A stretch of DNA of 64,000 bases from an uncultured bacterium. GTDB lineage: Bacteria > Bacteroidota > Ignavibacteria > Kapaibacteriales > UBA2268. Numbering within the stretch: position 1 is the stretch's first letter; each line of letters starts with the position of its first letter. Shown here one piece after another: positions 2,821-47,475 of this stretch. The notes under the pieces were generated by a model. The model did no database searches, was not told where the DNA came from, and saw only the letters and a program-made list of their open reading frames with translations. The stretch spans positions 1,515,219 to 1,579,218 of the forward strand of contig OW818654.1 of the NCBI GenBank assembly GCA_942492935.1, written 5' to 3'. A program made the position numbers and the translations under genes.

Positions 2821-2946
2821 AAAATAAATTAAAATATATGCTTTTTGGAGCAGTGAAAATATTTTTTATTTTTTTTCATTCCTATGAAACGAAAAGTACT
2901 TTCATGTGTCATTATATATGTGAGAATTGCAAAGTTGGAAAAAGTT

Positions 2947-18670: not shown

Positions 18671-20791
18671 ATGAAAGATATAGATAAAATATTGAATAAT
18701 GTAAAATCATCAAGCATTCCCGAATTTCCATTTTCTGATTCGCAAGTCCGGACTGTGATTGAAAATGTGGATTCTAAAAATAATTTTCAAATAATTAAAA
18801 AAGGAGCAATAATTATGACTTTTCTTATTTCACTTGTAGCATTTATGCTGTATTTGGGAGTCGATTCAGCGTCTGATTTAATAAACAATAAACAGTCGAA
18901 TTTTTTAGATTCACAAACAAAAATCATAACACAATTAGAATCTACTGCAAACATTGATAATGAACAGCAAAAGGAAGAATCTACTTTTAACCAAAATAAT
19001 CAGCAAACTTCGGACATTAAAAAACAATCCAAAATCTATGATATTGCAATGAATGAAGTTCAAGCAGATGCAAAGAATGTTTTTACTATTTTCATTCCAG
19101 ATAAAAGTGAAATGGACAAATTGTTTATTAGAAAAACAAATTGTGGATATGTAATAATGACTGAAGAAAACTATCCAATTAACCAATTTAAAGTGCAAAT
19201 GGAACAAATCTACAAAAATAATTACCCCAAAAAAGGTTACAAAAGAGCAATTCAAGTTTTAAATTTTGATGATATTCAGGAAATTGGAATTGCTAATTAT
19301 ACTGGCTGGGAAATGGATAATTCTGCAGGAATTTTTCCAATTATGGCAAAACTTATCAACATTGATAAAAAATTCAAAAACACCAGAAGGTTTCTTAGCA
19401 AAGCATCCCCCGGTCCAATTGATATTTCAGAACTAAGTGATATTGTCAATAGCAAGTTTTTGAGATTTATTCATAATACACTTGAAAAGTTGGATGATAA
19501 AAATGCTGGAAATGAGTTAAAAATTACTTACAATAAAGATGAAAATGAGTATTTATCGCAGGTAAGTATTGTTCTTTTGGATTTGGATAATGATTCTACA
19601 AGTTCATTTTGGCTGTTGGTTTATCCAAATACGAGAAATTTTGTTAAACTTCTTCCAAATAGATTTAATAAAGAATCAGATTTTGATTTATTTTCAGATT
19701 TTGGAATGGACTATAATGAAAGTGAAATAAATAGTGAAATTAACTTAGCTATTAATAATTTAGATGTAGAATGCAAAAACAAAATAAATGAAATTAAACA
19801 AAATGCACCAAAAACAGTTTCAAAAATTAGTGGTATTGAAAAAATAATATTGACAAATGAAGAAGCAAAACAAATTGGTATTAATATTGAAAAAAGTATA
19901 ATTTCATTCGAAGCAGAAGAATATTCTGATTTGTCAGTTTTACCTGATAAAATTCAAACATATATACAAACTGAGTTTAATTATAATACAACGGGTTTTG
20001 CCCTTCTTAAGGAAAGAATTGAATTTGATATGAATAATACTAACAATATGATAAAACCTGTTGTACAAAAATATTCAGGTTGGGAACATAATTTATGGTC
20101 TAACATTTCTCCGGCTTGCATTACAGTAAATAGAACTCTACAAATCGGCAACATTGTATCGTTAAGCCAAATCTTTCAATCTCCGCATTTAGTTAGAGAT
20201 TCAGCATACTATTATTTAAATAGTGATGATATTATTGTTAGAGATTCATTAGGGAAATACAAAGCAAAGATTCCAAATTTAATTCCTGTCAATTTTAAAG
20301 AAATTTCTTATAATAATAATGGAGATTCAATAGTAAATAACATTGATATCTGGTATGTTATTACAAGAGAATTTGCAAATAGATTACCTAATAGATACAA
20401 ATTACCTTTAATCAAGGAACTCGATTTGCTAAGCAATATTGAAAATGGTTCTACCACTATTGATGATGCTTGTGAGGTATTGAAAGGTGAGAAATCTTAT
20501 TTAGGAATTTGCGAAATTCAAGGTGAATTATCAATTCTAAATATTTTTCCAAATCCAATTACAGAAAGTACAGCCACAATTAAATTTATTCTTAAAAGTG
20601 ATAAAAAATTAAAAATTGAACTTTTCAATTCAAATGGAGAATTATTAGAAACAGTAAAGGACTATTCAGAATACAATACAGGTATCAATAGTGTGAATCT
20701 TGAATTTTTTGATTTATCAAAAGGAGTAGTTTTAATTTCATTGACAGATGAAAGCAATCAAAGAGCAATAATCAAAGCTATTAAAAATTGA
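18671..20791 (+). CDS. Membrane-anchored anti-sigma-factor-like protein with a large extracytoplasmic domain and a T9SS C-terminal sorting domain
   Basis: Its start lies 10 nt after the sigma-factor stop. A ~45-aa N-terminal cytoplasmic segment precedes a single TM helix (AIIMTFLISLVAFMLYLGV). The C-terminus …LSILNIFPNPITESTATIKFILKSDKKLKIELFNSNGELLETV… is a canonical Por_Secre_tail. Confidence 0.55.
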   Translation: MKDIDKILNNVKSSSIPEFPFSDSQVRTVIENVDSKNNFQIIKKGAIIMTFLISLVAFMLYLGVDSASDLINNKQSNFLDSQTKIITQLESTANIDNEQQKEESTFNQNNQQTSDIKKQSKIYDIAMNEVQADAKNVFTIFIPDKSEMDKLFIRKTNCGYVIMTEENYPINQFKVQMEQIYKNNYPKKGYKRAIQVLNFDDIQEIGIANYTGWEMDNSAGIFPIMAKLINIDKKFKNTRRFLSKASPGPIDISELSDIVNSKFLRFIHNTLEKLDDKNAGNELKITYNKDENEYLSQVSIVLLDLDNDSTSSFWLLVYPNTRNFVKLLPNRFNKESDFDLFSDFGMDYNESEINSEINLAINNLDVECKNKINEIKQNAPKTVSKISGIEKIILTNEEAKQIGINIEKSIISFEAEEYSDLSVLPDKIQTYIQTEFNYNTTGFALLKERIEFDMNNTNNMIKPVVQKYSGWEHNLWSNISPACITVNRTLQIGNIVSLSQIFQSPHLVRDSAYYYLNSDDIIVRDSLGKYKAKIPNLIPVNFKEISYNNNGDSIVNNIDIWYVITREFANRLPNRYKLPLIKELDLLSNIENGSTTIDDACEVLKGEKSYLGICEIQGELSILNIFPNPITESTATIKFILKSDKKLKIELFNSNGELLETVKDYSEYNTGINSVNLEFFDLSKGVVLISLTDESNQRAIIKAIKN

Positions 20792-22234: not shown

Positions 22235-23344
22235 TCAATTTACATATTTCCCGAGTTCATCACTATCTGTATAAGCATAATATTTCATTACTGTATCTAA
22301 ACTATCTCTTGATAATTTGCTAACTATTTGAGGAGTTAATTTTTCTGTATATAACCATTCTGATATTCTTGTTTTTCGCAAAGTATGAATACAACGACCA
22401 TAGACTGCTTTTCGTTTTCTTTCTATGCCTGATATATTCATTTGTTTTGTGTTCCCATCTCCTACGGTATATTTTGGAATATTTAATGCTTCCAATCCCT
22501 TATTAAACCTATAGTCAATCGTTCTTGAATAATCTGATATGTTGAATATTTTACCTTTGCTTTCTTTCCTACTTTCTACTTGGTCAAATATATTTTTCAA
22601 TTTATCTGTCAATGGAAATTTGTCGGGCTTGTTACCAAATTTTGATTTTTCAAACATTATACTTTGTCTGTAATCACCATCTGTATTTAAGACTTGGTCC
22701 CATTCCATATTAACCGCTTCATTTTTACGCAATGCACAAATATAGATAGTTTGTATTAATAGATAAAATTGATAATTCTTTTCTTGCCAATAATCAAATA
22801 TTTTTTTTATTTCCTCTGGAGTATATATTTCAATTATTTTTTCTGTTTTTTTAGGTTTTAATGTTTTAATAATTGGATTTTTCCGCATCCATTCTCTTTC
22901 GATACAGTAATTGAAAAAACTTGATAACCTAATTAAATTAACCGTTGCCGTTTTTGAAGCGTGATTTCGTTTCAATAAATTATTTTCTATATGCAGAGTA
23001 ATTTTATTATCGTCATTCAAAATTAAATCTTCTGTAATATATGATTTGAATGAATAAATGTATTGCTGAAGTGTGTTTTTATGCTTAGTATTTTTCGATT
23101 GCTCAATGAAGATTTTGAACGCTTGAATGATTGTTACAGGATGATTTTCATTTCTGAAATGTTCTGGGCTTTCACTTTCTGCAATTATATCACCTGCGAT
23201 TTTACGATTTTTACGATTATAAATCAAACCGCAGGATTTCATTCTATTGCCTACTTTGTACCATATAATGCTCTTTTTACCACGAACAAAAAACCGTCCT
23301 TTACAGCCGGGCATTGAGTACGGTTTTTCTGGTGCTTTTTCCAT
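22235..23344 (-). CDS. int: Tyrosine site-specific recombinase (phage integrase family)
   Basis: The C-terminal catalytic region contains …GRCIHTLRKTRISEW (the H-x-x-R box) and …LDTVMKYYAYTDSDE, which carries the catalytic Tyr. An N-terminal SAM-like domain is present. 369 aa. Confidence 0.85.
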   Translation of the reverse strand: MEKAPEKPYSMPGCKGRFFVRGKKSIIWYKVGNRMKSCGLIYNRKNRKIAGDIIAESESPEHFRNENHPVTIIQAFKIFIEQSKNTKHKNTLQQYIYSFKSYITEDLILNDDNKITLHIENNLLKRNHASKTATVNLIRLSSFFNYCIEREWMRKNPIIKTLKPKKTEKIIEIYTPEEIKKIFDYWQEKNYQFYLLIQTIYICALRKNEAVNMEWDQVLNTDGDYRQSIMFEKSKFGNKPDKFPLTDKLKNIFDQVESRKESKGKIFNISDYSRTIDYRFNKGLEALNIPKYTVGDGNTKQMNISGIERKRKAVYGRCIHTLRKTRISEWLYTEKLTPQIVSKLSRDSLDTVMKYYAYTDSDELGKYVN

Positions 23345-26759: not shown

Positions 26760-27104
26760 ATGCAAAAACTAAAAATATATATTTCCGGCAAAATGAATGG
26801 TCTTAATAAAGAGCAATATTTTATGCTGTTTTTTGATAAGTATAATGAATTAAGAAAAAAATATCCTGATGCAATTATTATCAATCCTGTTTTTGTGGGC
26901 TACGAACTTGAATTAATTATTGAATTGAAATATGGTCGCAAGCCCACATACAGCGAATATTTGATGTATGATTTATATTATTTGTCAATGTGTAATGCTA
27001 TTTATATGCTATCTAATTGGCATAATTCAAATGGTGCTAAGACAGAGCTTGCTTATGCTCAAGCGTGTAATTTCCAAATTTACTATCAAGACTTGGAGGA
27101 GTGA
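26760..27104 (+). CDS. DUF4406-family protein (nucleoside 2-deoxyribosyltransferase-like fold)
   Basis: IYISGKMNG near the N-terminus and …NWHNSNGAKTELAYAQACNFQIYY at the C-terminus match the DUF4406 pattern common in phages. Confidence 0.55.
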   Translation: MQKLKIYISGKMNGLNKEQYFMLFFDKYNELRKKYPDAIIINPVFVGYELELIIELKYGRKPTYSEYLMYDLYYLSMCNAIYMLSNWHNSNGAKTELAYAQACNFQIYYQDLEE

Positions 27105-30139: not shown

Positions 30140-31078
30140 ATGAATAATTGGATTAAATTATACAGAGCATTAAATAAGCATTGGGTTTTTGATAATTCCG
30201 ATTATTTAAAATTGTGGATTTATATACTGACTACTTGTGAGTATGAAACGGCGATCCGTAATTCTAATACTAAAAAAATAGAACTTCAACCGGGACAAAT
30301 GCTTTTCACTTTGGAAAATATGAGTGAGGTTTGCAATATGCCATACATAAAAATCAGACGGTTTATTGACAGGTGCATAAAGGACGATATGATAAGTATT
30401 AAGCTAAATTGTAAACAAAATTCAGTGCTAAGTGTTTTAAATTGGGAGACTTACCAATCTGTAAATGTCAATGAAAATAACGAAAAAACATTGAGCAGTC
30501 ATTTGAGCAGTCATTTGAGCAGTCATTTGAGCAGTCATTTGAGCAGTCATTCTGACGTTGTAAATGATGAAATACCAAAGAGTTATAAAGATGACGAAAA
30601 TAATTTGAGCAGTCATTTGAGCAGTCATTTGAGCAGTCATTTGAGCAGTCATTTGAGCAGTTCATATAATGATAAAGAGAATCCTAAGAATCCTAAGAAT
30701 AAAAAGAAAGAAGAAATAACTACTTTCTCTACTGCAAAAATGAATTTTTTAAATTTTGATTTTGTTTTGGAATTTGTAATTAATTCAATTCCAGAATCAA
30801 AAGTAATTTCAGAAGAGAATTTAAAATTTTCAGTAGAGAAGTGGTTAAATCTTAGAACTAATTCCGAATGGCGAAATAAAAATGGTGTTTTGATTTCCGA
30901 TTGGAAACAGGACATTAAAACTTGGATCAAAAATGAAATTATTTATCAACAAAATTTAAAAGGAAATAAAAATGATAGAAGCACAAGAGCTGGCAAGCAT
31001 ATTGACGAACCACAACAGGTCAATATCGAAGACACACTCCGAAAATTCGAGCAATGGAGAGAGAAAAATAACACTTGA
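30140..31078 (+). CDS. Replication initiator/replisome-organizer-like protein with internal (SSHL)n repeats
   Basis: N-terminal winged-helix-like segment (…LKLWIYILTTCEY…QPGQMLFTLENMSEVCNMPYIKIRRFIDRC…). Two blocks of 5 x 12-bp direct repeats lie within the ORF. Confidence 0.45.
   Translation: MNNWIKLYRALNKHWVFDNSDYLKLWIYILTTCEYETAIRNSNTKKIELQPGQMLFTLENMSEVCNMPYIKIRRFIDRCIKDDMISIKLNCKQNSVLSVLNWETYQSVNVNENNEKTLSSHLSSHLSSHLSSHLSSHSDVVNDEIPKSYKDDENNLSSHLSSHLSSHLSSHLSSSYNDKENPKNPKNKKKEEITTFSTAKMNFLNFDFVLEFVINSIPESKVISEENLKFSVEKWLNLRTNSEWRNKNGVLISDWKQDIKTWIKNEIIYQQNLKGNKNDRSTRAGKHIDEPQQVNIEDTLRKFEQWREKNNT
30487..30663. repeat. Iteron-like tandem repeats (two clusters of 5 x AGCAGTCATTTG separated by ~55 bp) inside the replication-initiator-like gene
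   Basis: Perfect 12-bp direct repeats at 30487-30546 and 30604-30663. Confidence 0.8.
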
Positions 31079-31586
31079 ACAGTGGTTTATGGATATAGTT
31101 TTCAAAAAACTACCTCTTTATCAAGCTGTAACTTGCGATGAAGCAACTGCATTTGCTATTCTTGAAGAGTTACGCAGACAAGATTTTCAAGATTGGCAAC
31201 GTGAAGTAGCTGAATGTTGGATATTGCAAGGTAATTGGCAATACAAAAGCCCAAAAAAATTAACAGTAAAAGATTTTTTTCCATCAGAAAAAGAAATCGC
31301 TGGTTTTGATGCTTTTATGTCCGTTGAGGTCGTTCAAGCAAAGTTACGAGAACTTGGAAACTACTACAAACAACAGTACGTGGCGAGTATCAGAGCAGAG
31401 ATTGAAGAAAAAAATTTAAAAGAATATGTTAATTTAAGAAAAAACTATTTGTCATTGTGGAAAAAAATCGTAAGTTTGCAATTTGATAATTCTACATTGC
31501 AAGATGAAATTATCACTTTAAAAAATTTATTAGAAACAGCAAAAAATAGAATTTCAAATTTAGAGGAGAGACTAAAAAATGACTAA
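30972..31586 (+). CDS. Hypothetical protein with C-terminal coiled coil (alternative start at 31089)
   Basis: As drawn, it overlaps the upstream gene by 107 nt. The internal Met at 31089 lies 10 nt after that gene's stop. …LQDEIITLKNLLETAKNRISNLEERLK is coiled-coil-like. Confidence 0.4.
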   Translation: MIEAQELASILTNHNRSISKTHSENSSNGERKITLEQWFMDIVFKKLPLYQAVTCDEATAFAILEELRRQDFQDWQREVAECWILQGNWQYKSPKKLTVKDFFPSEKEIAGFDAFMSVEVVQAKLRELGNYYKQQYVASIRAEIEEKNLKEYVNLRKNYLSLWKKIVSLQFDNSTLQDEIITLKNLLETAKNRISNLEERLKND

Positions 31587-32202
31587 TCCAGAAAAATATA
31601 AAAACATTTTCGGTTGGTTTAATTTTGAAGCAGTTTATGATATGATTTATAATTCAATCGTAAATAATGGCACGTTTATTGAAGTTGGAGTTTTTGAAGG
31701 TAAATCTCTTTGCTATATGGCGGAGTTAAACCAGATTTACGGCAAAAACTTGTCAATCATTGGAGTAGATCATTTTCGAGGAAGTGATGAGCCACTTCAC
31801 CATTTAATGTTAGCTAACAGTCAGATTACACTTGCAGATAAGGCATATCAAAATCTTCAGAACGCACAAGTTTTGAGGGATATTGTTTTGTTGCCGTTTG
31901 CTTCAGAAGAGGCGAAAGACTTGTTCAATGACAACAGTGTTGATGCTATTTTCATTGATGCAAGCCACGATTACGAAAATGTGAAAGCTGATATTCTTCA
32001 TTGGTTGCCAAAAGTCAAGGACGGCGGAATACTTGCGGGACACGATTATTACGGAAATCATAAAGAAGTGAAATTAGCTGTAGATGATAGCTTGCACAAT
32101 TACGAAATTTTCAGTTCTGTACAAACGGAGTGCTGGTGGATTTATAAAACGCCAAAAAATCAAACTTCTGCAAGCGTGGTTAAACGTTCTTGTTGTAATT
32201 AG
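31579..32202 (+). CDS. Class I SAM-dependent methyltransferase, TylF/Methyltransf_24-like
   Basis: …GTFIEVGVFEGKSLCYMAEL… is the SAM motif I region. …DAIFIDASHDYENVKADILHWLPKVKDGGILAGHDY matches the conserved C-terminal block of TylF-type O-methyltransferases. Confidence 0.6.
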   Translation: MTNPEKYKNIFGWFNFEAVYDMIYNSIVNNGTFIEVGVFEGKSLCYMAELNQIYGKNLSIIGVDHFRGSDEPLHHLMLANSQITLADKAYQNLQNAQVLRDIVLLPFASEEAKDLFNDNSVDAIFIDASHDYENVKADILHWLPKVKDGGILAGHDYYGNHKEVKLAVDDSLHNYEIFSSVQTECWWIYKTPKNQTSASVVKRSCCN

Positions 32203-32246
32203 TATAAAATATCAAAAAAATTTTAAAAATTCAACAGAGAGGATTT

Positions 32247-33392
32247 ATGACAGAAATAATTAATTTAAGAGAAGACCTTTTAAGGCAAATTGAAAATAAT
32301 GAAGTAATTAAGCCGAAAGTTACTGTAACTGCTTATACTTCAACGAGAGACAGACATTTTACAACTTTACCATTGTTGCTGTTTGGTTTGCTTCATCAAA
32401 CACGGAAGCCCGACAAAATCGTTATTTATGACGATAGCCCGAACAAACCTGACTTGCAAAATCATTGGATGTTCAAACATATTTTTGGAATTTGCAACAT
32501 TTTGAATGTTCCGTATTACGTTTTTTACGGACAGGGAAAGGGACAAGTTCTAAACCACCAGCACGCATTAATGACGGCTGATACAGACATTGTGTGGCGA
32601 TTAGATGATGATAATTATCCAGAGCCGAATGTATTGGAAACACTTTTACGAAAATTAGAAGATGACACAGTAGGTGCGGTTGGTTGCAATGTTTGGCATC
32701 CTGACCGTCCAATTTATCCTGTTCCGAGCTATGCGTTTGGAAAAATGACAAAAGGTGTATTTCACCAAGTGCCTGAATGGTTTTATATTCAAGATGGGCA
32801 AGATAGATTTACAGAACATTTATATTCAACTTTTGCATATAAAACCAAAATAGCACGAACTACACCGGGTTATCCAATGGATTTAAGCCCAGTTGGGCAT
32901 CACGAAGAAACAATTTTCTCGCATCAAATTTACAGAACAGGGCATAAATTAGTTGTTACTCCCGATTGTAAAGTTTGGCATTTACGCAATCCAGAAGGTG
33001 GAATAAGAGCTTACAGAGACGAGTTTTTGTGGAAGCACGACCAAGACAAGATGGATGTTTATATGAAAAATTGGGGTTACAACGATAAACCGACAAAATT
33101 TGCAATACTGAAAAATGGTATTGGCGACCAATTTGCATTTAAAACCATTTTACCAGAGTTTGTTGCTAAATACAAAGATACTCACGACTTAGTAATTTCG
33201 AGCAGTAATCCAGATGTTTTCCACGATTCAAAGGATGTGTTTGTAATGAATTTGAATGAAGTTACTTACTTTGTACCTCAAGACAAATGGGAAGAATACA
33301 ATGTTTACAGAATTATGGCAGAACAGGAAAGTAAAGGACAAGTGTTAAATTTAATTGACAGTTATAGAAAATTATATCAATTGGAAAATTAA
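32247..33392 (+). CDS. Family 2 glycosyltransferase (GT-A fold)
   Basis: VTVTAYTSTRDRHFTTLPLLLFGLLHQTRKPDKIVIYDDSPNKPD matches the GT2 N-terminal signature. The DxD region is …DIVWRLDDDNYPEPNVLETLL. Confidence 0.6.
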   Translation: MTEIINLREDLLRQIENNEVIKPKVTVTAYTSTRDRHFTTLPLLLFGLLHQTRKPDKIVIYDDSPNKPDLQNHWMFKHIFGICNILNVPYYVFYGQGKGQVLNHQHALMTADTDIVWRLDDDNYPEPNVLETLLRKLEDDTVGAVGCNVWHPDRPIYPVPSYAFGKMTKGVFHQVPEWFYIQDGQDRFTEHLYSTFAYKTKIARTTPGYPMDLSPVGHHEETIFSHQIYRTGHKLVVTPDCKVWHLRNPEGGIRAYRDEFLWKHDQDKMDVYMKNWGYNDKPTKFAILKNGIGDQFAFKTILPEFVAKYKDTHDLVISSSNPDVFHDSKDVFVMNLNEVTYFVPQDKWEEYNVYRIMAEQESKGQVLNLIDSYRKLYQLEN

Positions 33393-33940
33393 AATGTGTG
33401 AAATAAAACAAATCAATAAAGAAGAAGTAATTTTTTTACAGCAAAATGCAACTTATTCACTTGTGGAGTTCATTGATATATTTAAAAAGTCGCTTGGGTA
33501 TGGTGGACAGCAAGTATTAAGCCCAATAGTTCTTAGCAATGGAAAAATAATGTTTACTTTTAATGTAATAAATACAAATAAACCTTTATCAAAAATATTA
33601 TTAGAGCAAAATGGATTAATGCAGGGAAATTCTAAATGAGTGAAGAATTAAAAGTAAAAAGTCAAATTCATATTGCTTTGATGGAAAATAACACAATTCA
33701 AGTTTCTCACGATGAAATTGAGAAAGCGGGAGTTGCTACTGAATTGCTATTTGGAGCATTAGTTTTATTTTGGCAGTATTCGGAATTTAAAGAAATAGAC
33801 GGATTTGTTGATCATTGTGAGAAAGCAAAAGAATTATTCCAAAGTAATTTTGTAGAATATTTGGAAAATTATCTCACAAAAAGAAATCATAAAGTTGAAT
33901 TAGTAAATAAATTTTTCAATCAATTGCAGGAAGTGAAGTA

Positions 33941-34414
33941 ATGAATACTATCATCATCAGTCCATTTTCAAACAAATTGGGCGATAAACAAAATGCAAAA
34001 AATTATCCATATTGGCGAGAGCTTGTAGGCAGGTTGCGTCTTGCGGGTATGTACGTGATACAGTTGGGTGCAGGTGATGAACCCAAAATAGGTGCAAATG
34101 GTTACTTGTATAATCAGAAATTTGATGAAATTGCAAAGTTAATCAGAAACAGTCATTTGTGGTTATCTGTAGATAATTTTTTGCATCATTTGGTAAAAGC
34201 GGAATGTCCCGAGAAACCGGGCATTGTCATTTGGGGTCCATCGGATCCCGAGCTGTTTGGTTATCCAGAGCAGATTAATGTTTTGAAATCACGTGCTACA
34301 TTAAGACCGAGACAATGGGCTATTTGGAATGAATGTGAGTTTAATCCAGATATATTTCCCGATTATAACGAGATAATGGATATAATTAAAAACAAATTAT
34401 TTGCTACTGTTTAA
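33941..34414 (+). CDS. Possible glycosyltransferase-9 (heptosyltransferase)-like C-terminal-domain protein
   Basis: …LIRNSHLWLSVDNFLHHLVKAECPEKPGIVIWGP… weakly resembles the GT9 donor-binding region. It lies downstream of the methyltransferase and GT2 genes. Confidence 0.3.
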   Translation: MNTIIISPFSNKLGDKQNAKNYPYWRELVGRLRLAGMYVIQLGAGDEPKIGANGYLYNQKFDEIAKLIRNSHLWLSVDNFLHHLVKAECPEKPGIVIWGPSDPELFGYPEQINVLKSRATLRPRQWAIWNECEFNPDIFPDYNEIMDIIKNKLFATV

Positions 34415-35573: not shown

Positions 35574-36098
35574 TAAACTGTGTGTATTACCTGCACTCCA
35601 TTTTCACTGAATTTTATTTTTACTTTTTCATTCAAAAAATCGTAAACCTCTATCAAAAAACCGATATAAAATTGATTTATAGGATTGTTTATATTTACTT
35701 TATTTTCTAAAATATTTGCAAATTGCAAAGTGTCAAGCTCCGAATTAATCGGAGCATATTTTTTATAAATATTGATAGTATCAAATAATGTTTGGTAGTA
35801 TAACATTTTTAAGCACCTTTTTTGATAAAATAATAATTTGCAATATTGCTAATTTGTTCTTGTGGAGTTAAAAATTTGAAACTGTTTTCATTCCATAAAT
35901 CAAACGTCTCAATGTAAATATCGGAGTAATTTTCTTGAGTTTGTTTAAAGAAATTATAAACTATGTTTATATCGTAAATTTCTTGATTTTCCTGCGTTCT
36001 AATAGCTTTATTTGTTCTATTTGATTGAATGTAATATAATAGAAAATTTAAAAATATTTTACTTTTATTCTTAAAAATATATTCTTTATGAATTAAAT

Positions 36099-36587
36099 CT
36101 AATAATGTTTGGTCATCATAAGACCAAGTTTATCAATTGAATGCTCAATCATATATTTAATTTCTGGAATAGTAATTTTAAAGAATTTTAATTCATTTAT
36201 CAAAAAATCTAATGTTTTTTGATATTTGTAATTAGATATTTTTTCAATCTTTATATCTGGGAGATTTAATTCATTTTTATAGCTATTATAAATTTTCAAA
36301 ATTTTGTCAATAGGTCCGATATAGCAATTTTTTCTATAAATAAATTCAATAAAAACATTTTCATAATTATCAATTGTAATTTGTTCAAATTCAATTTGAA
36401 ATTGATAATTATTAAAAGCATTATAGCGACTAACATTTTTTTCTTGAGTAGGAATTTTAGTAATTACATCACTACTCCAAATTTGATTTTCTTTAGTATT
36501 GATAAGCAAAAATATTGCTAATCTATAGTTTTTAAAAGCAACGTTTTGCAACGTTGCTATTACTTTTTTAGTTTCATTTAAATTCAT
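36099..36587 (-). CDS. Hypothetical protein
   Basis: ORF abutting the J-domain gene, separated from it by 1 nt. Confidence 0.4.
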   Translation of the reverse strand: MNLNETKKVIATLQNVAFKNYRLAIFLLINTKENQIWSSDVITKIPTQEKNVSRYNAFNNYQFQIEFEQITIDNYENVFIEFIYRKNCYIGPIDKILKIYNSYKNELNLPDIKIEKISNYKYQKTLDFLINELKFFKITIPEIKYMIEHSIDKLGLMMTKHY

Positions 36588-36588
36588 T

Positions 36589-37140
36589 TTAAGCTCCTTT
36601 CAATTCTTTTTTTGAATAACTATTCATAATTTTTGAACCGTATTTATTTCTAATATCAATAATGTTTTGTGGTTTACTTTTAAATGATTTTTTCAATTCA
36701 TTAGGACGCCAAAACCACATTTTTTTGCCCGGAGCAAATAAAAACCCAATTTCTTTTAATTCGTTTTTAATTGGAAAAGTAGCACCACTTAACCAAATCC
36801 ACGAGCCGATTAATTCAATAATTACAAATTCAAAATTGATAATTTTATTAATAATTTCTTTATATTCCATTTCTAAATCAATATCAATAAAATCATTTTC
36901 TACATTTGAATTATTCATAGTAGCAATATTTAACAATAAATATTCATATTCATTATTTATTTGTTGCATTATTGAAGTAGCTTGAGGATCTTTATTTATA
37001 TCGGGATGCCAAATTTTAGCGAGCCGTTTATATTCATTTTTCAATGAATTTAAATCATAGCAATTTTTTAAATATTCAATTTCAATCTTTTTCATTTTTT
37101 TATTCCTATATCTAAATTTAAATTTTCTTTTTAGTAACAA
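36589..37140 (-). CDS. J-domain (DnaJ-like) protein
   Basis: …YKRLAKIWHPDINKDPQATSIMQQINNEYEYLL shows the HPD tripeptide inside a helix II/III J-domain context. Confidence 0.65.
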   Translation of the reverse strand: MLLKRKFKFRYRNKKMKKIEIEYLKNCYDLNSLKNEYKRLAKIWHPDINKDPQATSIMQQINNEYEYLLLNIATMNNSNVENDFIDIDLEMEYKEIINKIINFEFVIIELIGSWIWLSGATFPIKNELKEIGFLFAPGKKMWFWRPNELKKSFKSKPQNIIDIRNKYGSKIMNSYSKKELKGA

Positions 37141-37493
37141 ACTTTGTTACAAATATAGTAACGTATTAGTTTCAAAAAAGTTTCAAAGAAAATAAAAATA
37201 ATTTTCAAAAAAAATATTTTTAAATCTTAATCCTATGAAAAATATAATACTTAGTATTAGAAAATAATTTTTAAGAAAAAAAAATAAAAATAATTTGAAA
37301 CATTTTGAAACTAAAAACGTATATATAAATGTAATCAAAATGATTACAAAAAAAATAAAGTAAATAATTTTATGAATAAAGTAATATTTCAATAAAATAA
37401 TTTGCAACAAATTGAAACTAAAATCGTATATAAAAAAGTAACAAAGTATGTTACGGAAAAGAATTTTTAAAATTAATATAAGGAATTAAAAAA
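37141..37493. promoter_or_regulatory. Divergent regulatory region with three copies of a TTTGAAACTAA(A/T)ACGT(A) motif
   Basis: The motif occurs at 37165-37180 in inverted orientation and at 37305-37322 and 37410-37426 in direct orientation. GTAAC/GTTAC dyads are also present (gttacaaatatagtaac). Confidence 0.5.
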
Positions 37494-37754
37494 ATGTATA
37501 GCTATGAATTATTAGAAAATGGAATTTTTATCAAGGGAGATTTTTCGCAATATCTAACCGGACCATACTTAGATTTAGAATTTAGTTTGATTGAAATTAA
37601 CGGAGATTCGGGGATAGAATATACTCCAGAAGGTTTGTTTGTTTATAATATTGTGGATAATAATCCAGAATATTTTTACATAATTGAAAAAAATTCAATA
37701 GGTGAAACTATTGCAAAAATTACAATTGAAAATAATAAATTATTAATTATTTAA
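37494..37754 (+). CDS. Hypothetical small protein (first of four cassette-like genes)
   Basis: ORF followed by the conserved hairpin-SD cassette. Confidence 0.4.
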   Translation: MYSYELLENGIFIKGDFSQYLTGPYLDLEFSLIEINGDSGIEYTPEGLFVYNIVDNNPEYFYIIEKNSIGETIAKITIENNKLLII

Positions 37755-37797
37755 ATCATCGCCCGGCTCGTGCCGGGCTATATAAGGAGCAGAAAAA

Positions 37798-38031
37798 ATG
37801 GAATATTTAATTAATGAAGATGACCATGTTTTAATAGAATTTGATAATTCTATCACAGTAGATATGGATTTAAGAATAGATTATAAAGATTCAAACGAAG
37901 GAGTTGGATTTTGGAATATCGAAATTTTAACTCCAGATTTTAAAATTCTTTTAGAAGATGACACAAAAGAAAATGCACTCACAAAATCATTAAATATGGT
38001 TAAAAGTTTAAATTATTATTATAGTCTTTAA
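37798..38031 (+). CDS. Hypothetical small acidic protein
   Basis: Starts at the ATG of cassette 1. Confidence 0.4.
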   Translation: MEYLINEDDHVLIEFDNSITVDMDLRIDYKDSNEGVGFWNIEILTPDFKILLEDDTKENALTKSLNMVKSLNYYYSL

Positions 38032-40437: not shown

Positions 40438-41061
40438 TTAATTATTAAAGATTGGAAATTCCATATCTTTTTTGATTTTTTTGTAAAGATAACGATTTTT
40501 GGTATGACAATCTGCAATACCATCTTCTGCGTGAATAACAACTTCAGCTAAATGCAGAACGTCATTTTCACCTTTAAAACTTTTTCCACCTTTCAATGAG
40601 AACAAAACACTTATAAAACTAATAGCTTGCTCTTTATAATCATTGTGAAGCATAAACAGATCCATTACAGTTTTTTGGTTAAACATAGCAATTTTTGAAA
40701 TACTGTCCATAATTACAAACTTATATTTGCCTGTATCAATCTGCTGTTTGATTGAATTTAATTCGCAATTATCCCAAAAATGAATTGTAGGACTGCTGAT
40801 TTTCAAAGCCCTTGCTTTACTTTGAATTGTACCACCTGCGAGGTTTTCCTCCGCATTTATGTACAAAACCCTGCCACTCCTTGAAAGCATATCAGCAAGT
40901 TTTAAAGCAAATGATGATTTACCTCCAAATGATGGACCAGTTAATAACATTGTCCATTGAACATTTGAAGGAATTTGACCTAAGAATTTGTTCCATTTTA
41001 ACGGCATATTCAGAGGTTTTACTTTGTAACCAATTGTATGAGATAATGGTGTTGCTTTCAT
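40438..41061 (-). CDS. RecA/KaiC/DnaB-C-terminal-like P-loop ATPase (207 aa)
   Basis: Walker A LLTGPSFGGKSSFALKL. Walker B …YKFVIMDSISKI (hhhhDS type, RecA-like rather than FtsK/HerA DE type). Confidence 0.55.
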   Translation of the reverse strand: MKATPLSHTIGYKVKPLNMPLKWNKFLGQIPSNVQWTMLLTGPSFGGKSSFALKLADMLSRSGRVLYINAEENLAGGTIQSKARALKISSPTIHFWDNCELNSIKQQIDTGKYKFVIMDSISKIAMFNQKTVMDLFMLHNDYKEQAISFISVLFSLKGGKSFKGENDVLHLAEVVIHAEDGIADCHTKNRYLYKKIKKDMEFPIFNN

Positions 41062-41669
41062 AAATATTTCTTATAAAGTGCATAAGCTGTTGTAATACCT
41101 ACAGTTGCTATTGTAGCACCTGCAATTCCCAATGTAACATCTTCAAACCCTGCCATAAACTCATACAAAAATCCCGGCAAGTTATATGAAATTTGTCCTT
41201 CATCGGCTCTACCTTGTATTTTGGGCATTTCTTCAGTGTGAATAAATTTATATCCAGACAATGAAGAATGACTTGCCCAAGTTACTGAATCATTATTATT
41301 TCCTTCAATACATTTAATAGTGCCGTTTCTGACTTCTACTACCAAACCAACGTGTCCGCCACCACTACGAGTACGAAAGAAAATTGATCCGGGCTTAGCT
41401 GTTGTATCAACACGCAAACCCTTTTTGCTTGCAGAATTAACCATCGTTACTGTAGATGCGGTTTTTGGTAGTAAATTTTTAATTCCAAAATCCTTTGCAG
41501 TCAAATCAGCTACCATCCAAACGAACTTTGCACACCAATGCTCATTAGTTTGCTTTCCGTTGAAATACTCTGTAATTTCATTCAAGCAAGGAGATGAACC
41601 CGCTAATTTCAATTCTTTACAGCCAAGCCACAATTCCGCTTTTTTAGTTAATCCTGTTGCAAAATTCAT
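41058..41669 (-). CDS. CHAP-domain peptidoglycan hydrolase with C-terminal TM anchor
   Basis: Cys context …HWCAKFVWMV…. His context …GGGHVGLVVEVRNGTIKCIEGNNNDSV. The C-terminus VTLGIAGATIATVGITTAYALY is hydrophobic. Confidence 0.55.
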   Translation of the reverse strand: MNFATGLTKKAELWLGCKELKLAGSSPCLNEITEYFNGKQTNEHWCAKFVWMVADLTAKDFGIKNLLPKTASTVTMVNSASKKGLRVDTTAKPGSIFFRTRSGGGHVGLVVEVRNGTIKCIEGNNNDSVTWASHSSLSGYKFIHTEEMPKIQGRADEGQISYNLPGFLYEFMAGFEDVTLGIAGATIATVGITTAYALYKKYL

Positions 41670-43563: not shown

Positions 43564-46500
43564 TTAAGCACCAATTGACCACTTATTAACTGGTGCGGCT
43601 TCATTGTAAACGATATTGCAAGCATTAAGCAATGCAACTAATTCCACACAATTATAGCAACAACCACTCGCACCACTCGCACCATCTAAACCATTTTGTC
43701 CGCTGTAACCAGAAATTCCATCTGCACCATTTTGACCACTGTAACCTGATGCACCATTAATTCCACTAAACCAGCCACTATAACCTGAAATTCCACTCGC
43801 ACCATCTTGACCATTTTGACCGCTGTAACCTGAAAGACCATCTAAGCCATTTAGACCGCTGTAACCCGAAATTCCATTGCTTCCATTTTGACCACTGTAA
43901 CCTGAAATTCCGTTTGTACCATTTTGACCACTGTAACCTGAAATTCCACTTTGAGCTTGACCATTTGCACCCGAATAACCACTTAGTCCATCTGTACCAT
44001 TTTGACCACTTATTCCTGATTCGCCTTTTGCACCACTCGCACCTGACGCACCCGAAAAACCACTTTTTCCTGATGCTCCACTCCAGCCCGAATAACCACT
44101 GTAGCCACTAAGTCCTGATTTGTCCACCCACAATTTTAATGAAATATCGCCTGTGAATCCTGATATTCTTGTGTAGTCTTCAGTAGCTCCACTATATCCC
44201 GAAATTTGCCATTGTCCGTAAACTGTGAGAGGTTCTGCAACTGTACCCGAGAAGTCTTTGAAGTTTGCAGTTTGCCAATTCTTTTTACTGTCAATAATTG
44301 TATTGTTATGTCTCAATGTATTTGTTTGCATTGTATTTGGAATAATCGGATGCGAGAAATATGGTGTAATTAATGGATCTGTTGAATTACCAACTTTAAA
44401 TCCAGTAACTCCACCTGTTTGCTCAACTTTTACAACTAATCTGTGTCCGCTTTCCCAACTGAAACAACTTAAATCTGCTAAAAATGTATATATGCCACTA
44501 ACCGGTAATGTATCGGTAGAAATTTGACCTTTGTATGTTTCAGTACCATCTGCTTCTAAAGCATAGAATTTAAATGTTAAATATGCACTTCCTGATGAAG
44601 TAACATTCAAATTGAAAAACCATTTACCAAATGGGAAAATATCACCTGCTGGCTCAAAAGCATTTGCTAAGAATTTCAAATTTGTGAATGATGTGAAATT
44701 CACTTCTGCGTGAGATGGTTTACAACGTGAAATTACACGGAAACCTGCTTTGTCTGATGCGTCATTTGTGAAGAAAAATGTTTCATTTCCTGCACCGCCA
44801 TCACTACTTGCTCCACTATAACCACTATATCCCGATGCTCCCGCTGTACCTGTATCGCCTTTTGGTCCAGTTGCTCCACTTGTTCCAACTCCACTGTAAC
44901 CCGAAATCCCGTCTTGTCCTGAATAACCGCTGAATCCACTTCTTCCCGAAAATCCTGATGTTCCTTGTGTGCCTTGCTGTCCCGAATAACCACTAAATCC
45001 CGATGTTGATTGTCCCGAATAGCCACTAAATCCAGAAGTTCCAATTCCTGATTTACCACTCCAGCCCGAGAAACCACTTTTCCCTGACCAGCCCGAAAAT
45101 CCAGAAGTTCCAATTCCTGAATAACCTGATATACCACTTTCGCCTTGAATACCATTTTGACCACTGAAGCCCGAAGTTCCAATACCTGAATAACCACTAA
45201 AGCCCGATGTACCTACTCCAGAGAAACCGCTATAACCACTATATCCTGATGTTGAAGTTCCTGAATAACCACTAAAGCCCGATTCGCCCGGAATACCAAT
45301 ACCTGAACCATCTTGACCGCTGAAGCCCGAAAGCCCACTTTCGCCTTGAATACCTTGCTCACCTTTTTCGCCACTGTAACCACTAAAGCCCGATATTCCC
45401 GGTACGCCAATACCTGAACCATCAAGTCCACTATATCCACTATAGCCCGATGTTCCAATACCACTGTAACCCGAGAAACCGCTTATTCCTTGCGTTCCAA
45501 TTCCCGAAAATCCGCTGAACCCACTTGTTCCAATTCCCGAGAAACCACTTAGTCCTGATGTTCCAATTCCCGAATAGCCACTAAATCCTGATGTGCCTAC
45601 TCCCGAAAATCCACTTAGACCTTGCTCACCTTTTTGACCGCTGAAACCTGAAAAACCACTTATTCCCTGCGTTCCAATTCCCGAAAATCCACTAAGACCT
45701 GTATCGCCTTTTTGTCCACTGTACCCAGAAAAGCCCGAACTTCCAGCTCCACTAAACCCGCTATAGCCACTTGTTCCAATTCCTGAATAACCACTGAACC
45801 CACTTCTTCCCGAAAATCCTGATGTTCCAATTCCTGAATAGCCACTTTTGCCACTCCATCCACTGAAGCCCGAAGTTCCAATTCCCGAAAAACCACTTAT
45901 ACCTTGATCGCCTTTTTGTCCGCTGTAACCACTAAACCCGCTTGTTCCTATTCCCGAATAACCACTTTTGCCACTCCATCCACTGAAGCCCGAAGTTCCA
46001 ATTCCTGAATAACCACTAAAGCCCGATTCTCCCGGAATACCAATACCTGATCCATCTTGTCCTGAATAACCACTTTTGCCACTCCAACCACTGAAGCCCG
46101 AAGTTCCAATTCCGCTGTAACCCGAAAATCCACTTAATCCATCTTGACCACTGTAGCCCGATGTAGAAAGTCCTGAATAACCCGAGAAACCACTTGTTCC
46201 CGGAATACCAATACCTGAACCATCTTGTCCTGAATAACCACTTACGCCACTCCAACCACTGAAGCCCGAAGTTCCAATTCCAGAATAGCCACTGAATCCG
46301 CTTGTTCCAATTCCCGAATAACCACTGAACCCACTTGTTCCAATTCCCGAATAGCCACTGAATCCACTTGTTCCAATTCCTGAATAACCCGAAAATCCGC
46401 TTGTTCCTTCTGCACCATCTTGACCGCTGAAGCCCGAAATTCCACTTTCGCCATCTGTTCCATCTTGACCTGAATAACCTGATATTCCACTTTCGCCATC

Positions 46501-47475
46501 TATTCCATCTTGACCGCTGAAACCACTATAACCCGATGTAGAATTTCCCGAATAGCCACTAAATCCCGATGTTCCCGGAATACCAATTCCCGAACCATCT
46601 GCACCTGAATATCCCGAAAATCCACTTTCGCCTTGAATACCTTGATCGCCTTTCTCGCCACTGAAGCCCGAATAACCACTCAAACCTAAGCCCGAATAGC
46701 CACTGAAGCCCGAAGTTCCAACTCCACTGTAACCCGAAATTCCTCTCGAACCAACTGCACCCGAAAAACCGCTATATCCACTTGCACCATCTGAACCCGA
46801 ATAACCAACTCCCGAAAATCCACTTAGACCTTGCTCGCCTTTTTGTCCGCTGTAGCCACTAAATCCTGATGTTGCAATTCCCGAATAACCACTGAATCCA
46901 CTTGTTCCCGGAATACCAATACCTGAACCATCTGCACCCGAAAAGCCCGAATAACCACTGAAGCCACTTGGTCCATTTGCACCAATAATTCCATCTTGTC
47001 CCGAATAACCGCTGTAACCCGAAACTGAAATTCCCGAATAACCACTATACCCTGATGTAGAAACTCCACTGTAGCCCGAAAATCCACTTGTTCCCGGAAT
47101 ACCAATACCCGAACCATCTGCACCCGAATAACCGCTGTATCCACTTTCGCCAGAATAACCAACTCCCGAATAACCACTGTAGCCCGAAGTTGATAATCCA
47201 GAATATCCGCTGAAGCCACTTTCACCCGAAAATCCAAGTCCGCTGAAACCCGAAAAGCCCGATGTTCCCGGAATACCTACACCTGAACCATCAAGTCCAC
47301 TATATCCTGACATCCCAGAAAATCCTGAAAAACCACTGAACCCCGATCCTCCAGAATAGCCACTGAAACCGCTTTCTCCGTCATAACCACGTGGACCAAT
47401 TGGACCAACTGAACCACCGCCACCACCGCCGAAGCCGTTACCTTCTGTCCCAATTGGGATTGTTGAGCAACTCAT
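43564..47475 (-). CDS. Giant collagen-like repeat protein (1303 aa), candidate fibre/spike
   Basis: Hundreds of SG(F/Y/W)SG and G-X-Y units (…GFSGYSGIGTSGFSGYSGQKGEQG…, …GPKGDTGTAGASG…). A ~230-aa non-repetitive central domain lies around 44.1-44.8 kb. The C-terminal tail CCYNCVELVALLNACN is Cys-rich. Confidence 0.75.
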   Translation of the reverse strand: MSCSTIPIGTEGNGFGGGGGGSVGPIGPRGYDGESGFSGYSGGSGFSGFSGFSGMSGYSGLDGSGVGIPGTSGFSGFSGLGFSGESGFSGYSGLSTSGYSGYSGVGYSGESGYSGYSGADGSGIGIPGTSGFSGYSGVSTSGYSGYSGISVSGYSGYSGQDGIIGANGPSGFSGYSGFSGADGSGIGIPGTSGFSGYSGIATSGFSGYSGQKGEQGLSGFSGVGYSGSDGASGYSGFSGAVGSRGISGYSGVGTSGFSGYSGLGLSGYSGFSGEKGDQGIQGESGFSGYSGADGSGIGIPGTSGFSGYSGNSTSGYSGFSGQDGIDGESGISGYSGQDGTDGESGISGFSGQDGAEGTSGFSGYSGIGTSGFSGYSGIGTSGFSGYSGIGTSGFSGYSGIGTSGFSGWSGVSGYSGQDGSGIGIPGTSGFSGYSGLSTSGYSGQDGLSGFSGYSGIGTSGFSGWSGKSGYSGQDGSGIGIPGESGFSGYSGIGTSGFSGWSGKSGYSGIGTSGFSGYSGQKGDQGISGFSGIGTSGFSGWSGKSGYSGIGTSGFSGRSGFSGYSGIGTSGYSGFSGAGSSGFSGYSGQKGDTGLSGFSGIGTQGISGFSGFSGQKGEQGLSGFSGVGTSGFSGYSGIGTSGLSGFSGIGTSGFSGFSGIGTQGISGFSGYSGIGTSGYSGYSGLDGSGIGVPGISGFSGYSGEKGEQGIQGESGLSGFSGQDGSGIGIPGESGFSGYSGTSTSGYSGYSGFSGVGTSGFSGYSGIGTSGFSGQNGIQGESGISGYSGIGTSGFSGWSGKSGFSGWSGKSGIGTSGFSGYSGQSTSGFSGYSGQQGTQGTSGFSGRSGFSGYSGQDGISGYSGVGTSGATGPKGDTGTAGASGYSGYSGASSDGGAGNETFFFTNDASDKAGFRVISRCKPSHAEVNFTSFTNLKFLANAFEPAGDIFPFGKWFFNLNVTSSGSAYLTFKFYALEADGTETYKGQISTDTLPVSGIYTFLADLSCFSWESGHRLVVKVEQTGGVTGFKVGNSTDPLITPYFSHPIIPNTMQTNTLRHNNTIIDSKKNWQTANFKDFSGTVAEPLTVYGQWQISGYSGATEDYTRISGFTGDISLKLWVDKSGLSGYSGYSGWSGASGKSGFSGASGASGAKGESGISGQNGTDGLSGYSGANGQAQSGISGYSGQNGTNGISGYSGQNGSNGISGYSGLNGLDGLSGYSGQNGQDGASGISGYSGWFSGINGASGYSGQNGADGISGYSGQNGLDGASGASGCCYNCVELVALLNACNIVYNEAAPVNKWSIGA

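Follow-up and report, generated by a model that had tools for sequence, protein, structure and literature searches.

The locus analysed here occupies positions 31579-34414 of the window, the 64,000-nucleotide stretch of DNA examined as a whole, and carries genes for a methyltransferase, a 381-aa glycosyltransferase and a 157-aa protein, with two small open reading frames (ORFs) lying between the last two. Its features are as follows:

31579-32202, + strand: class I SAM methyltransferase of the Methyltransf_24 type (Pfam PF13578), 207 aa, predicted sugar O-methyltransferase
32247-33071, + strand: GT-A (GT2) glycosyltransferase domain, about residues 1-275 of the 381-aa protein
33093-33392, + strand: C-terminal ~100 residues of the 381-aa GT2 protein, putative compact N-lobe of a split GT9-like GT-B enzyme, with invariant G291-x-G293-D294
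33355 or 33394 to 33639, + strand: small ORF between the GT2 and GT9-like genes, 94 aa if started at TTG 33355, 81 aa if started at an in-frame ATG at about 33394
33636-33941, + strand: 101-aa small ORF that shares 4 nt and 1 nt with the genes on either side
33941-34414, + strand: 157-aa protein, putative stand-alone C-lobe (nucleotide-sugar-binding) of the split GT9-like enzyme, from its family profile against WaaC

An earlier note on this DNA had described a methyltransferase, a GT2 glycosyltransferase and a possible GT9-like protein, and all three ORFs are present where it had placed them, all on the + strand, with the whole GT2 protein of 381 aa encoded at 32247-33392 (+ strand). The two small ORFs between the GT2 and GT9-like genes are absent from that description; the ATG at about 33394 that starts the 81-aa form of the first was placed by reading the translation. 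The first small ORF had no Pfam or PHROG match, the second had only sub-threshold matches to either collection, and blast found no homologue of either in the first 92 related loci. An upstream 204-aa ORF overlaps the start of the methyltransferase gene by 8 nt, the gap between the methyltransferase and GT2 genes is 44 nt, and the layout is consistent with a tight operon of the methyltransferase, GT2 and 157-aa genes. Between the methyltransferase gene and the end of the early genes, the only terminator-like sites scored are inside coding sequence, at 31854 (methyltransferase gene) and 34230 (157-aa gene), and a cleaner one lies at 35737-35755, 3' of the early genes. A scan for sigma-70 promoters returned 25 sites against 27 expected, Bacteroidota promoters deviating from the scanned consensus. 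A DnaD-like replication gene (30140-31078) is a neighbour in the early operon, a DUF4406 protein is encoded upstream of the cassette, and the element is a prophage that has an integrase at 22235-23344 and lies on a 4.49-Mb NCBI contig. T9SS sorting domains were found among the proteins encoded in the window and point to a Bacteroidota/FCB-like host.

The methyltransferase matched Pfam PF13578 over the full profile (positions 1-105 of 105) with E=3.7e-19 and 70 bits, against a cut-off of 26.3. It had been called TylF/Methyltransf_24-type, and the second half of that name is borne out, whereas the TylF match (E=0.084 only) does not go beyond a generic similarity to class I O-methyltransferases. 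Searches of the PDB gave weak matches to CmcI and caffeoyl-CoA O-methyltransferase (CCoAOMT). From the weak CmcI, TylF and CCoAOMT similarity and from natural fusions to glycosyltransferases, the protein is predicted to O-methylate a sugar. The best PHROG for it, 2675, is labelled "DNA methyltransferase", and we rejected this label as a transferable annotation because the profile was matched only in part.

The assignment of the 381-aa protein to GT2 was upheld by profile search, with PF00535 matched at E=3.4e-9 and 37.3 bits, above the cut-off of 23.3. The N-terminal domain fits the GT-A fold, and the DxD motif (D120-D121-D122) is invariant across 30 homologues. The nearest solved GT2 enzymes by sequence include the wall-teichoic-acid enzymes RmlT and TarP (E about 1e-3), and the domain resembles ppGalNAc-T1, a protein-serine O-glycosyltransferase, most closely, by a small margin over other enzymes. 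The GT2 domain is predicted to carry out inverting glycosyl transfer from a nucleotide sugar.

The 157-aa protein alone matched PF01075 (GT9) at E=0.0015 and 18.3 bits, below the 22-bit cut-off and only over profile positions 117-218 of 247, and many of its homologues carry a precomputed PF01075 match. A tblastn search with it found Salmonella heptosyltransferase I at E about 1e-4. The profile of its family (A5) matched residues 181-297 of E. coli WaaC, the C-lobe of that enzyme, with E=2.6e-6, and the conserved K20, E47 and D78 of the 157-aa protein align with K192, E222 and D261 in the donor-binding lobe of WaaC. The GT9 relationship that had been suggested is significant through the family profile, and the description of a "GT9-like protein" is half right, because the 157-aa protein is one lobe of a split enzyme. 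The missing N-lobe would be formed by the final ~100 residues of the GT2 protein, a piece with three strands. The profile of this piece (A4) found no relative in the PDB (best E=1.1), so its assignment as an N-lobe rests on natural fusions, the GxGD motif and the fold. The piece is contiguous with the 157-aa family in at least 22 clusters of 400-1700-aa proteins, and single-chain fusions of this kind include P0181, P0234, P0240 and P0247. An AlphaFold2 model of P0240 (pLDDT 92.7, pTM 0.86) folds confidently into the GT9 fold, a two-lobe GT-B; TibC, a protein-serine heptosyltransferase, ranks first among its matches, although the margin by which the GT9-like module is closest to TibC over other enzymes is small. 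To align the halves with the fusions we used A6, which started from five natural fusions as its seed and came out correct; two MAFFT alignments of the halves with a fusion (A2 and A3) were discarded, N-lobe sequences having been misaligned onto the C-lobe. Separate genes encode the two lobes in the window, as they do in 120 of 122 loci, and the 381-aa and 157-aa polypeptides are predicted to pair physically.

The cassette is a common phage gene set. IMG/VR contains more than 558 confirmed matches to the family, and on the cellular side only 11 MAG contigs were found in 185,579 species genomes; the family is restricted to phages and essentially absent from cellular genomes. Most members are on lytic-looking viral contigs, inside structural modules, and in most phages the cassette is placed in the fibre module. 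In 86 of 92 loci, the gene after the GT2 homologue is a homologue of the 157-aa gene. The two genes abut or overlap in 94 of 119 other loci, and an insert of more than 500 nt between them, as in the window, occurs in 12 of the 119. Of 140 cassette loci, 111 have a methyltransferase domain no more than 5 kb away, and 74 have it on one ORF with the GT2. The genes of phage P19250A, which is recorded with a named host strain, likewise run in the order methyltransferase, GT2 and 157-aa gene, with a homologue of the 157-aa protein that is 39% identical and a methyltransferase that is non-orthologous. In P0011, Methyltransf_24 is fused N-terminally to a GT2 homologue, P0343 is a single 1700-aa chain that combines Methyltransf_24, GT2 and the GT9-like module, and P0325 is a further natural domain fusion within the family. 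The statement that such sets are not typical early-phage cargo is wrong in general, because the cassette is common in phages; what is unusual is its position in an early, replication operon. Hydropathy analysis with a 19-residue window gave maxima of 0.77-1.04 for the methyltransferase, GT2 and 157-aa proteins and revealed no transmembrane or hydrophobic segments in any of them, and the three enzymes are, by this prediction, soluble.

Two genes of the same prophage encode the predicted acceptors:

43564-47475, - strand: collagen-like fibre of 1303 aa with SGFSGYSG (G-[F/Y]-S) repeats in its translation, predicted acceptor
48126-49523, - strand: tail fibre of 465 aa, collagen-like SGFSGYSG stalk at the N-terminus, globular domain at the C-terminus, also a predicted acceptor

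The 1303-aa fibre contains 273 in-register G-X-Y triplets, with Ser at the Y position in 63% and Pro in 4%. The 465-aa fibre contains 37 such triplets, matches Pfam Collagen (PF01391) with E=1.7e-8 and belongs with the PHROG tail-fibre and collagen-like minor-tail families. Both have the repeat features of collagen, and a triple helix is predicted for them.

When the 1303-aa fibre was used as the query, 77 viral loci were retrieved and 48 of them contained the cassette. In the other direction, a protein with G[YFW]SG repeats was found within 10 kb in 36 of 92 cassette-anchored loci. The association of the cassette with G-X-Ser fibre genes is thus seen in both search directions. The endolysin of the window had no relatives in IMG/VR and could not anchor a control set, so internal controls were used instead, namely distance bins and the comparison of Ser-type with non-Ser collagen loci. 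The density of G[YFW]SG ORFs was 8.8 per 100 kb at distances of up to 1 kb from the cassette versus 2.1 at 7.5-10 kb, and 41 of 44 such ORFs were on the strand of the cassette. The cassette was present in 46 of 58 Ser-type collagen loci versus none of the 12 loci with non-Ser collagen (Fisher p=2.5e-7, a value that overstates independence because the loci are phylogenetically related); at 70% identity the GT2 proteins of the fibre-anchored loci fall into 9 clusters, and at 50% into 2. Twelve Ser-type fibre loci had no cassette within reach, four of the 12 with full flanks, and in about half of the cassette loci a G-X-S ORF was not seen within the sequence available. In the window itself, 9-13 kb separate the cassette from the fibres, and it is on the opposite strand, in the early operon.

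The earlier note had offered glycosylation or methylation of virion proteins such as the collagen-like fibres, conversion of the host surface and hypermodification of DNA as possible functions, and the Ser-type specificity, together with the agreement of the two search directions, favours the fibres, while serotype conversion and DNA modification found poor support. We consider it rather probable that this phage-specific cassette O-glycosylates the collagen-like fibres of the same prophage in the cytoplasm, with a methylated glycan. In the proposed mechanism, the 381-aa protein would combine a GT-A (GT2) domain with a small GT9-type N-lobe that carries the putative catalytic Asp of the invariant GxGD, and the 157-aa protein would supply the matching nucleotide-sugar-binding C-lobe. 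The two proteins would form a soluble heteromer with two transferase sites (GT-A and GT9-like). Upon infection or induction, this heteromer would assemble a short O-linked glycan on the Y-position serines of the G-[F/Y]-S repeats in the fibres encoded at 43564-47475 and 48126-49523, and O-methylation of one of its sugars would be the task of the upstream SAM methyltransferase. We infer the acceptor protein and residue from gene neighbourhood only; the donor sugars of the cassette enzymes and the biological role of the fibre glycan are likewise putative. ADP-heptose or another GT9-type donor may be missing in some hosts. The probable role of the glycan is to stabilise or shield a triple helix that is poor in proline, or to tune adsorption.

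An alternative is that the cassette glycosylates one or more other virion proteins (the capsid, the tail tube or a conserved 297-aa protein), and that its adjacency to fibre genes reflects a hypervariable structural and fibre region. In about 21-23 loci the cassette stands between scaffold/capsid and portal genes and the 297-aa protein comes after it, and this is the placement in a podovirus-like lineage (L068 and its relatives), in which the L068 contig has no G-X-S ORF in 29 kb and the relatives with such an ORF have no cassette in the stretch seen. Sets of glycosyltransferases and O-methyltransferases in mycobacteriophages also modify capsid and tail-tube subunits, according to the part of Freeman et al. 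2023 quoted in PMC12619734. On the other hand, some podovirus-like relatives (L178, L188 and L194) do have G-X-S proteins elsewhere on their contigs, and the specificity for Ser-type collagen in both search directions speaks against this alternative, which we regard as unlikely.

Slightly less probable still, in our judgement, is that the target of the enzymes, in lysogeny or infection, is a glycan of the host envelope (LPS, capsule or another surface polysaccharide), for superinfection exclusion or serotype conversion, as do Gtr or the prophage-encoded TarP. The element is a prophage with its cassette in the early rather than the late operon, GT9 relatives act on LPS cores, RmlT and TarP are among the nearest solved GT2 enzymes, and papers on aquatic phages assume a host-glycan role for fibre-adjacent glycosyltransferases (PMC7029224). 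However, the enzymes have no transmembrane segments, there is no flippase and no GtrA/GtrC-like partner among the neighbours, the family is almost absent from cellular genomes and is found mostly on lytic-looking contigs in structural modules, and a host-glycan function would leave the Ser-type collagen specificity unexplained.

That the enzymes hypermodify phage DNA with glycosylated and methylated bases against restriction is very improbable: the cassette adjoins replication genes (DnaD-like), has a DUF4406 protein upstream and includes a methyltransferase with the PHROG label mentioned above, but hydroxymethylase or nucleotide-modifying genes were absent from the 18 early-region ORFs scanned against Pfam, no family member was linked to nucleotide-modifying genes in the neighbourhoods examined, and the hydroxymethyl-pyrimidine synthesis genes and DNA glycosyltransferase fold of phage DNA glycosylation were not found.

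Hydroxyproline stabilises animal collagen, and in the cuticle collagen of Riftia glycosylated threonine plays a hydroxyproline-like role. Returning to fibre glycosylation, a bolder and more doubtful extension is that hundreds of mostly aquatic tailed-phage lineages carry a two-site O-glycosylation machine (GT-A and split GT9-like, encoded by translationally coupled genes and usually with a methyltransferase), and that its Y-position Ser glycans are required to fold or stabilise the proline-free G-[F/Y]-S triple helices of tail fibres. If this is true, Ser glycans on phage fibres would take the part that hydroxyproline has in animal collagen, and fibre assembly and host recognition would include an obligatory, previously unrecognised post-translational step. 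The usual explanation for glycosyltransferases beside tail-fibre genes is DNA protection or modification of the host O-antigen (PMC7029224 for aquatic phages), and many metagenomic phage annotations would be affected if the cassette decorates its own collagen-like fibres. Virion glycosylation would then extend well beyond mycobacteriophages, and a GT9-like enzyme split over two genes and fused to a GT2 domain would be a new enzyme architecture. Ser-linked glycosylation of collagen could also bear on host-range engineering, on immune shielding of therapeutic phages and on designed collagen-like materials.

BclA of B. anthracis is glycosylated on Thr of GPT repeats, and the gene sets for virion glycosylation in mycobacteriophages include O-methyltransferases. 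BclA is an O-glycosylated collagen-like surface filament whose glycan ends in O-methylated anthrose (PMC6222408, PMC7793302), but it is cellular, its enzymes are unrelated to the cassette, and the phage repeats are G-[F/Y]-S with almost no proline. Mimivirus L230 is a virus-encoded enzyme that glycosylates the virus's own collagen-like proteins (PMC9614988), although it acts on hydroxylysine and is unrelated to the cassette enzymes. Mycobacteriophages show that tailed-phage glycosyltransferases decorate virion proteins; the targets given in the part of Freeman et al. 2023 cited in PMC12619734 are the C-termini of capsid and tail-tube subunits. Gtr systems combine a membrane-anchored GtrB-like GT2 with a GtrA flippase and GtrC, a composition that the cassette does not share. 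Compared with WaaC and WaaF (CAZy GT9), the cassette enzyme has an N-lobe of about half the size, is split over two genes, is confined to phages and is not linked with lipid A-core genes, whereas CAZy GT9 enzymes have both lobes, with a full-size N-lobe, on one chain of ~320-350 aa. TibC and AAH of the BAHT family heptosylate protein serines, to which the genomic association of the cassette with G-X-Ser fibres may be compared, and have an N-terminal beta-barrel and a thumb formed by a beta-hairpin, along with a Cys4 iron-finger (PMC4358343); the cassette enzyme is without the N-terminal barrel, and no conserved cysteines were found among the invariant or near-invariant columns of alignments A5 and A1. 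The chlorovirus PBCV-1 proteins A064R (GT-GT-methyltransferase) and A061L provide a virus-encoded cytoplasmic multi-activity enzyme system that caps a virion-protein glycan (PMC9614988), and the cassette family has the same kind of domain fusions as A064R (P0011, P0325 and P0343), although the A064R domains are not homologous to the cassette as far as compared and the target is the N-linked capsid glycan of a eukaryotic virus. The split itself has its closest parallel in ALG13/ALG14 and the bacterial Cps14F/G, in which a GT-B enzyme is cut at the inter-lobe linker and an N-lobe protein must pair with a donor-binding C-lobe protein (PMC9527342, PMC8993221), and the cassette enzyme would be split alike.

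The methyltransferase, GT2 and GT9-like trio that the earlier note placed at 31579-34414 was confirmed by ORF calls and Pfam as part of a run of five tightly packed plus-strand ORFs, and the two small ORFs at 33355-33941 are an addition to it.

Features of the cassette and of the prophage around it
22235-23344: prophage integrase
30140-31078, plus strand: DnaD-like loader, upstream of the cassette
31579-32202, plus strand: 207-aa methyltransferase (Pfam Methyltransf_24, E = 3.7e-19; TylF, E = 0.084)
32247-33392, plus strand: 381-aa glycosyltransferase (Pfam GT2 PF00535, 37.3 bits; cut-off, 23.3)
33355/33394-33639, plus strand: small ORF, 94/81 aa, between the halves of the proposed split enzyme
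33636-33941, plus strand: small ORF, 101 aa, between the same halves
33941-34414, plus strand: 157-aa GT9-like protein (Pfam GT9, 18.3 bits against 22; profile positions 117-218 of 247)
41058-41669: prophage endolysin
43564-47475, minus strand: 1303-aa fibre with SGYSG/SGFSG-type repeats
48126-49523, minus strand: 465-aa fibre with a globular C-terminal domain (Pfam Collagen; PHROG tail-fibre and collagen-like minor-tail families)

The previous label "TylF/Methyltransf_24-type" is supported for Methyltransf_24 but not for TylF, and the GT9-like label has a Pfam match behind it, but one that is sub-threshold and covers only part of the profile. A PHROG "DNA methyltransferase" label for the cassette methyltransferase was rejected, being a partial profile match only. 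The two small ORFs matched no Pfam or PHROG family, and homologues were absent from the first 92 related loci. A coiled-coil protein gene lies upstream, running 8 nt past the methyltransferase start.

These genes belong to a prophage, which carries the cassette in its early operon and, on the minus strand, its tail-fibre genes together with a probable tape measure. The 1244-aa tail-module protein (55270-59004, minus strand) has an endolysin-like domain at its N-terminus and probably combines a tape measure and a lytic domain. The DnaD-like loader contains two runs of SSHL tandem repeats, around 30437-30665, and the MTAQ- and NDCS-repeat ORFs called antisense to this stretch look like artefacts of the repeats. 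An early-operon protein (26760-27104, plus strand) matches DUF4406 (E = 6.8e-16), a nucleoside deoxyribosyltransferase-like family. An island of 21% GC at 36000-38000 separates the early and late modules, and a DnaJ-domain protein is encoded inside it on the opposite strand (36589-37140, minus). Among the host genes upstream of the prophage, all on the plus strand, are an IS110-family transposase (12008-12973, E = 1.5e-53) and four large proteins with terminal T9SS type-A sorting domains (96-2099, 2884-4221, 13180-15045 and 18671-20791). These sorting domains suggest that the host is a member of the Bacteroidota/FCB group. A succinyl-CoA ligase beta-like gene (7275-8546) is adjacent there to a succinyl-CoA ligase alpha subunit-like gene fused to a citryl-CoA-lyase-like domain (8585-11311); such an ATP-citrate-lyase-like pair would hint that this T9SS-bearing host has an activity of the reverse-TCA type.

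The trio forms a conserved cassette that is restricted to phages. A word-indexed search found 142 homologues of the GT2 protein at about 93% length coverage, many of them fused to methyltransferase domains or additional GT2 domains, and a pattern scan of IMG/VR gave more than 558 confirmed relatives among the matches listed. In prokaryotes (185,579 species, one genome each) only 11 relatives were found, all on MAG contigs. A homologue of the 157-aa protein was present in 86 of 92 GT2 loci, nearly always directly downstream on the same strand. Of 122 loci in the enlarged set, 120 had the two genes as separate ORFs; the genes abutted or overlapped in 94 of 119, and 12 loci had inserts longer than 500 nt, like that of the window. 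Of 140 loci, 111 had a SAM-methyltransferase domain within 5 kb (74 of them within the GT2 ORF itself), and the commonest neighbour was an extra GT2 protein, with or without a methyltransferase domain (86 of 140).

Within the phage collection, the GT2 protein occurred in one record only, Methylophilaceae phage P19250A, which has the same cassette order as the window (class-I methyltransferase, GT2, 147-aa protein) directly after its fibre genes. The 147-aa protein shares 39% identity with the 157-aa protein of the window, and the methyltransferase belongs to a different Pfam family from the window's. At 12405-19355 of this phage, the genes deposited as "PE family protein" and as a further "tail length tape-measure protein" encode collagen-like repeat proteins. 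Because the 1201-aa "tail length tape-measure protein" has 125 G[YFW]SG motifs, the deposited annotation looks wrong.

The profile of the 157-aa family matches residues 181-297 of E. coli WaaC (E = 2.6e-6), the ADP-heptose-binding C-lobe, and the alignment places the invariant K20, E47 and D78 of the family on WaaC K192, E222 and D261. A match to Salmonella heptosyltransferase I was also found by tblastn. At its length, the 157-aa protein is without an N-lobe. The C-terminal ~100 residues of the GT2 protein form a distinct conserved block with an invariant G291-x-G293-D294 (alignment of 30 homologues). In the AF2 model (pLDDT 93.9) the block is a small beta-alpha unit whose GD loop follows the first strand; alone, the block had no significant sequence match in the PDB. 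Natural fusions of the block to the 157-aa family occur in proteins P0181, P0234, P0240, P0247 and P0211. With P0240 as query, an exhaustive HMMER search gave 787 clusters (E<=1e-3), and in at least 22 of these both pieces are contiguous at the C-terminal end of 400-1700-aa proteins. The modelled fusion matched the folds of TibC (4rap; 17.2, 234 of 277), Veillonella GT9 (3tov; 16.7, 226), WaaF (1psw; 16.0, 217) and WaaC (2h1f; 15.9, 215), the next after WaaC scoring 13.0 and then 10.6. Because of these fusions and fold matches, the two pieces are jointly predicted to be a compact GT9-fold enzyme. We infer that in the window and in most of the phages this enzyme is cut at the inter-lobe linker, with the N-lobe fused to the GT2 domain, and that the 381-aa and 157-aa polypeptides of the window would pair.

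Judged from gene association, the likely acceptor of the cassette is the Ser-repeat collagen-like fibre. Long proteins with SGYSG/SGFSG repeats are the second commonest family of cassette neighbours. A repeat-protein ORF lay within 10 kb in 36 of 92 cassette-anchored loci. Up to 1 kb from the cassette their density was 8.8 per 100 kb, versus 2.1 at 7.5-10 kb, and 41 of 44 repeat ORFs shared the cassette orientation. When the N-terminal 400 residues of the window fibre were used as query, 48 of the 77 loci retrieved, on mostly truncated contigs, had GT2, and 40 had the C-lobe gene too. As an internal control, the retrieved collagen-like ORFs were divided into two classes, Ser-type being those in which half or more of the G-X-Y triplets have Ser at Y. 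The cassette accompanied 46 of 58 Ser-type loci (12 were without it) versus 0 of 12 other collagen-like loci, with flanks scored to 10 kb, so that the window itself (cassette 9-13 kb from the fibres) would score as cassette-less. Fisher's exact test gave p = 2.5e-7 for loci that are related, their GT2s collapsing to 9 clusters at 70% identity.

The association favours fibre glycosylation, one of the options in the earlier note, but a podovirus-like lineage (L068 6799-9391; L043, L060, L171) shows no G-X-S ORF in 29 kb. Its cassette lies between scaffold/capsid and portal genes, together with an extra GT2 and two more small GT2-like genes, then a conserved 297-aa protein, and its acceptor may differ from the G-X-S fibres. 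These loci speak for modification of other virion proteins, above all in this lineage, a reading that we consider unlikely overall. Modification of a host surface glycan, including the serotype conversion suggested before, is the customary reading in the literature; we think it quite improbable, as membrane components are missing at this locus and both the phage restriction and the Ser-collagen specificity would be left unaccounted for. Hypermodification of phage DNA, also suggested before, is highly improbable, since the scanned early-region ORFs include no hydroxymethylase-type genes and the methyltransferase relatives are O-methyltransferase-like.

For fibre glycosylation, the methyltransferase, the GT2 protein and the 157-aa protein would work in the cytoplasm, since hydrophobic segments are absent from all three. 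An invariant DDD motif is present in the GT-A domain, which among solved folds comes closest to polypeptide GalNAc-transferase 1. The GT9-like module comes closest to TibC, an enzyme that adds heptose to serines in a repetitive adhesin (PMC4358343). Because both window fibres are proline-poor (3-4%), it is plausible, if speculative, that the glycan stabilises them, by analogy with BclA, a glycosylated collagen-like protein (PMC6222408).

Fusion proteins that link the activities
P0011: Methyltransf_24, GT2 and N-lobe piece
P0274: FkbM methyltransferase and C-lobe
P0285: pyruvyltransferase and C-lobe
P0325 (1186 aa): three GT2, methyltransferase and GT9-like
P0343 (1700 aa): GT2, TOD1-like, GT17, Methyltransf_24, GT2 and GT9-like

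By domain content, this set is a signature of variable glycan-building, with predicted decoration by O-methylation and sometimes pyruvylation. P0343, P0325 and P0333 (1220 aa) are single chains with 3-5 glycosyltransferase domains (GT2, GT17, TOD1/MUCI70-like, GT9-like) plus methyltransferase domains.

Viruses are already known to encode glycosylation of their virion proteins and of their collagen-like proteins, for instance PBCV-1 and mimivirus L230 (PMC9614988) and, as cited in PMC12619734, mycobacteriophages. Full-text literature searches turned up neither a description of a split GT9 nor a paper tying collagen-like fibres to GT9-like or GT2 cassettes of phages. ALG13/ALG14 (PMC9527342) has a similar split layout, although its GT-B family differs from that of the cassette, and PBCV-1 A064R, a GT-GT-MT protein (PMC9614988), is comparable in domain make-up to the cassette fusions.
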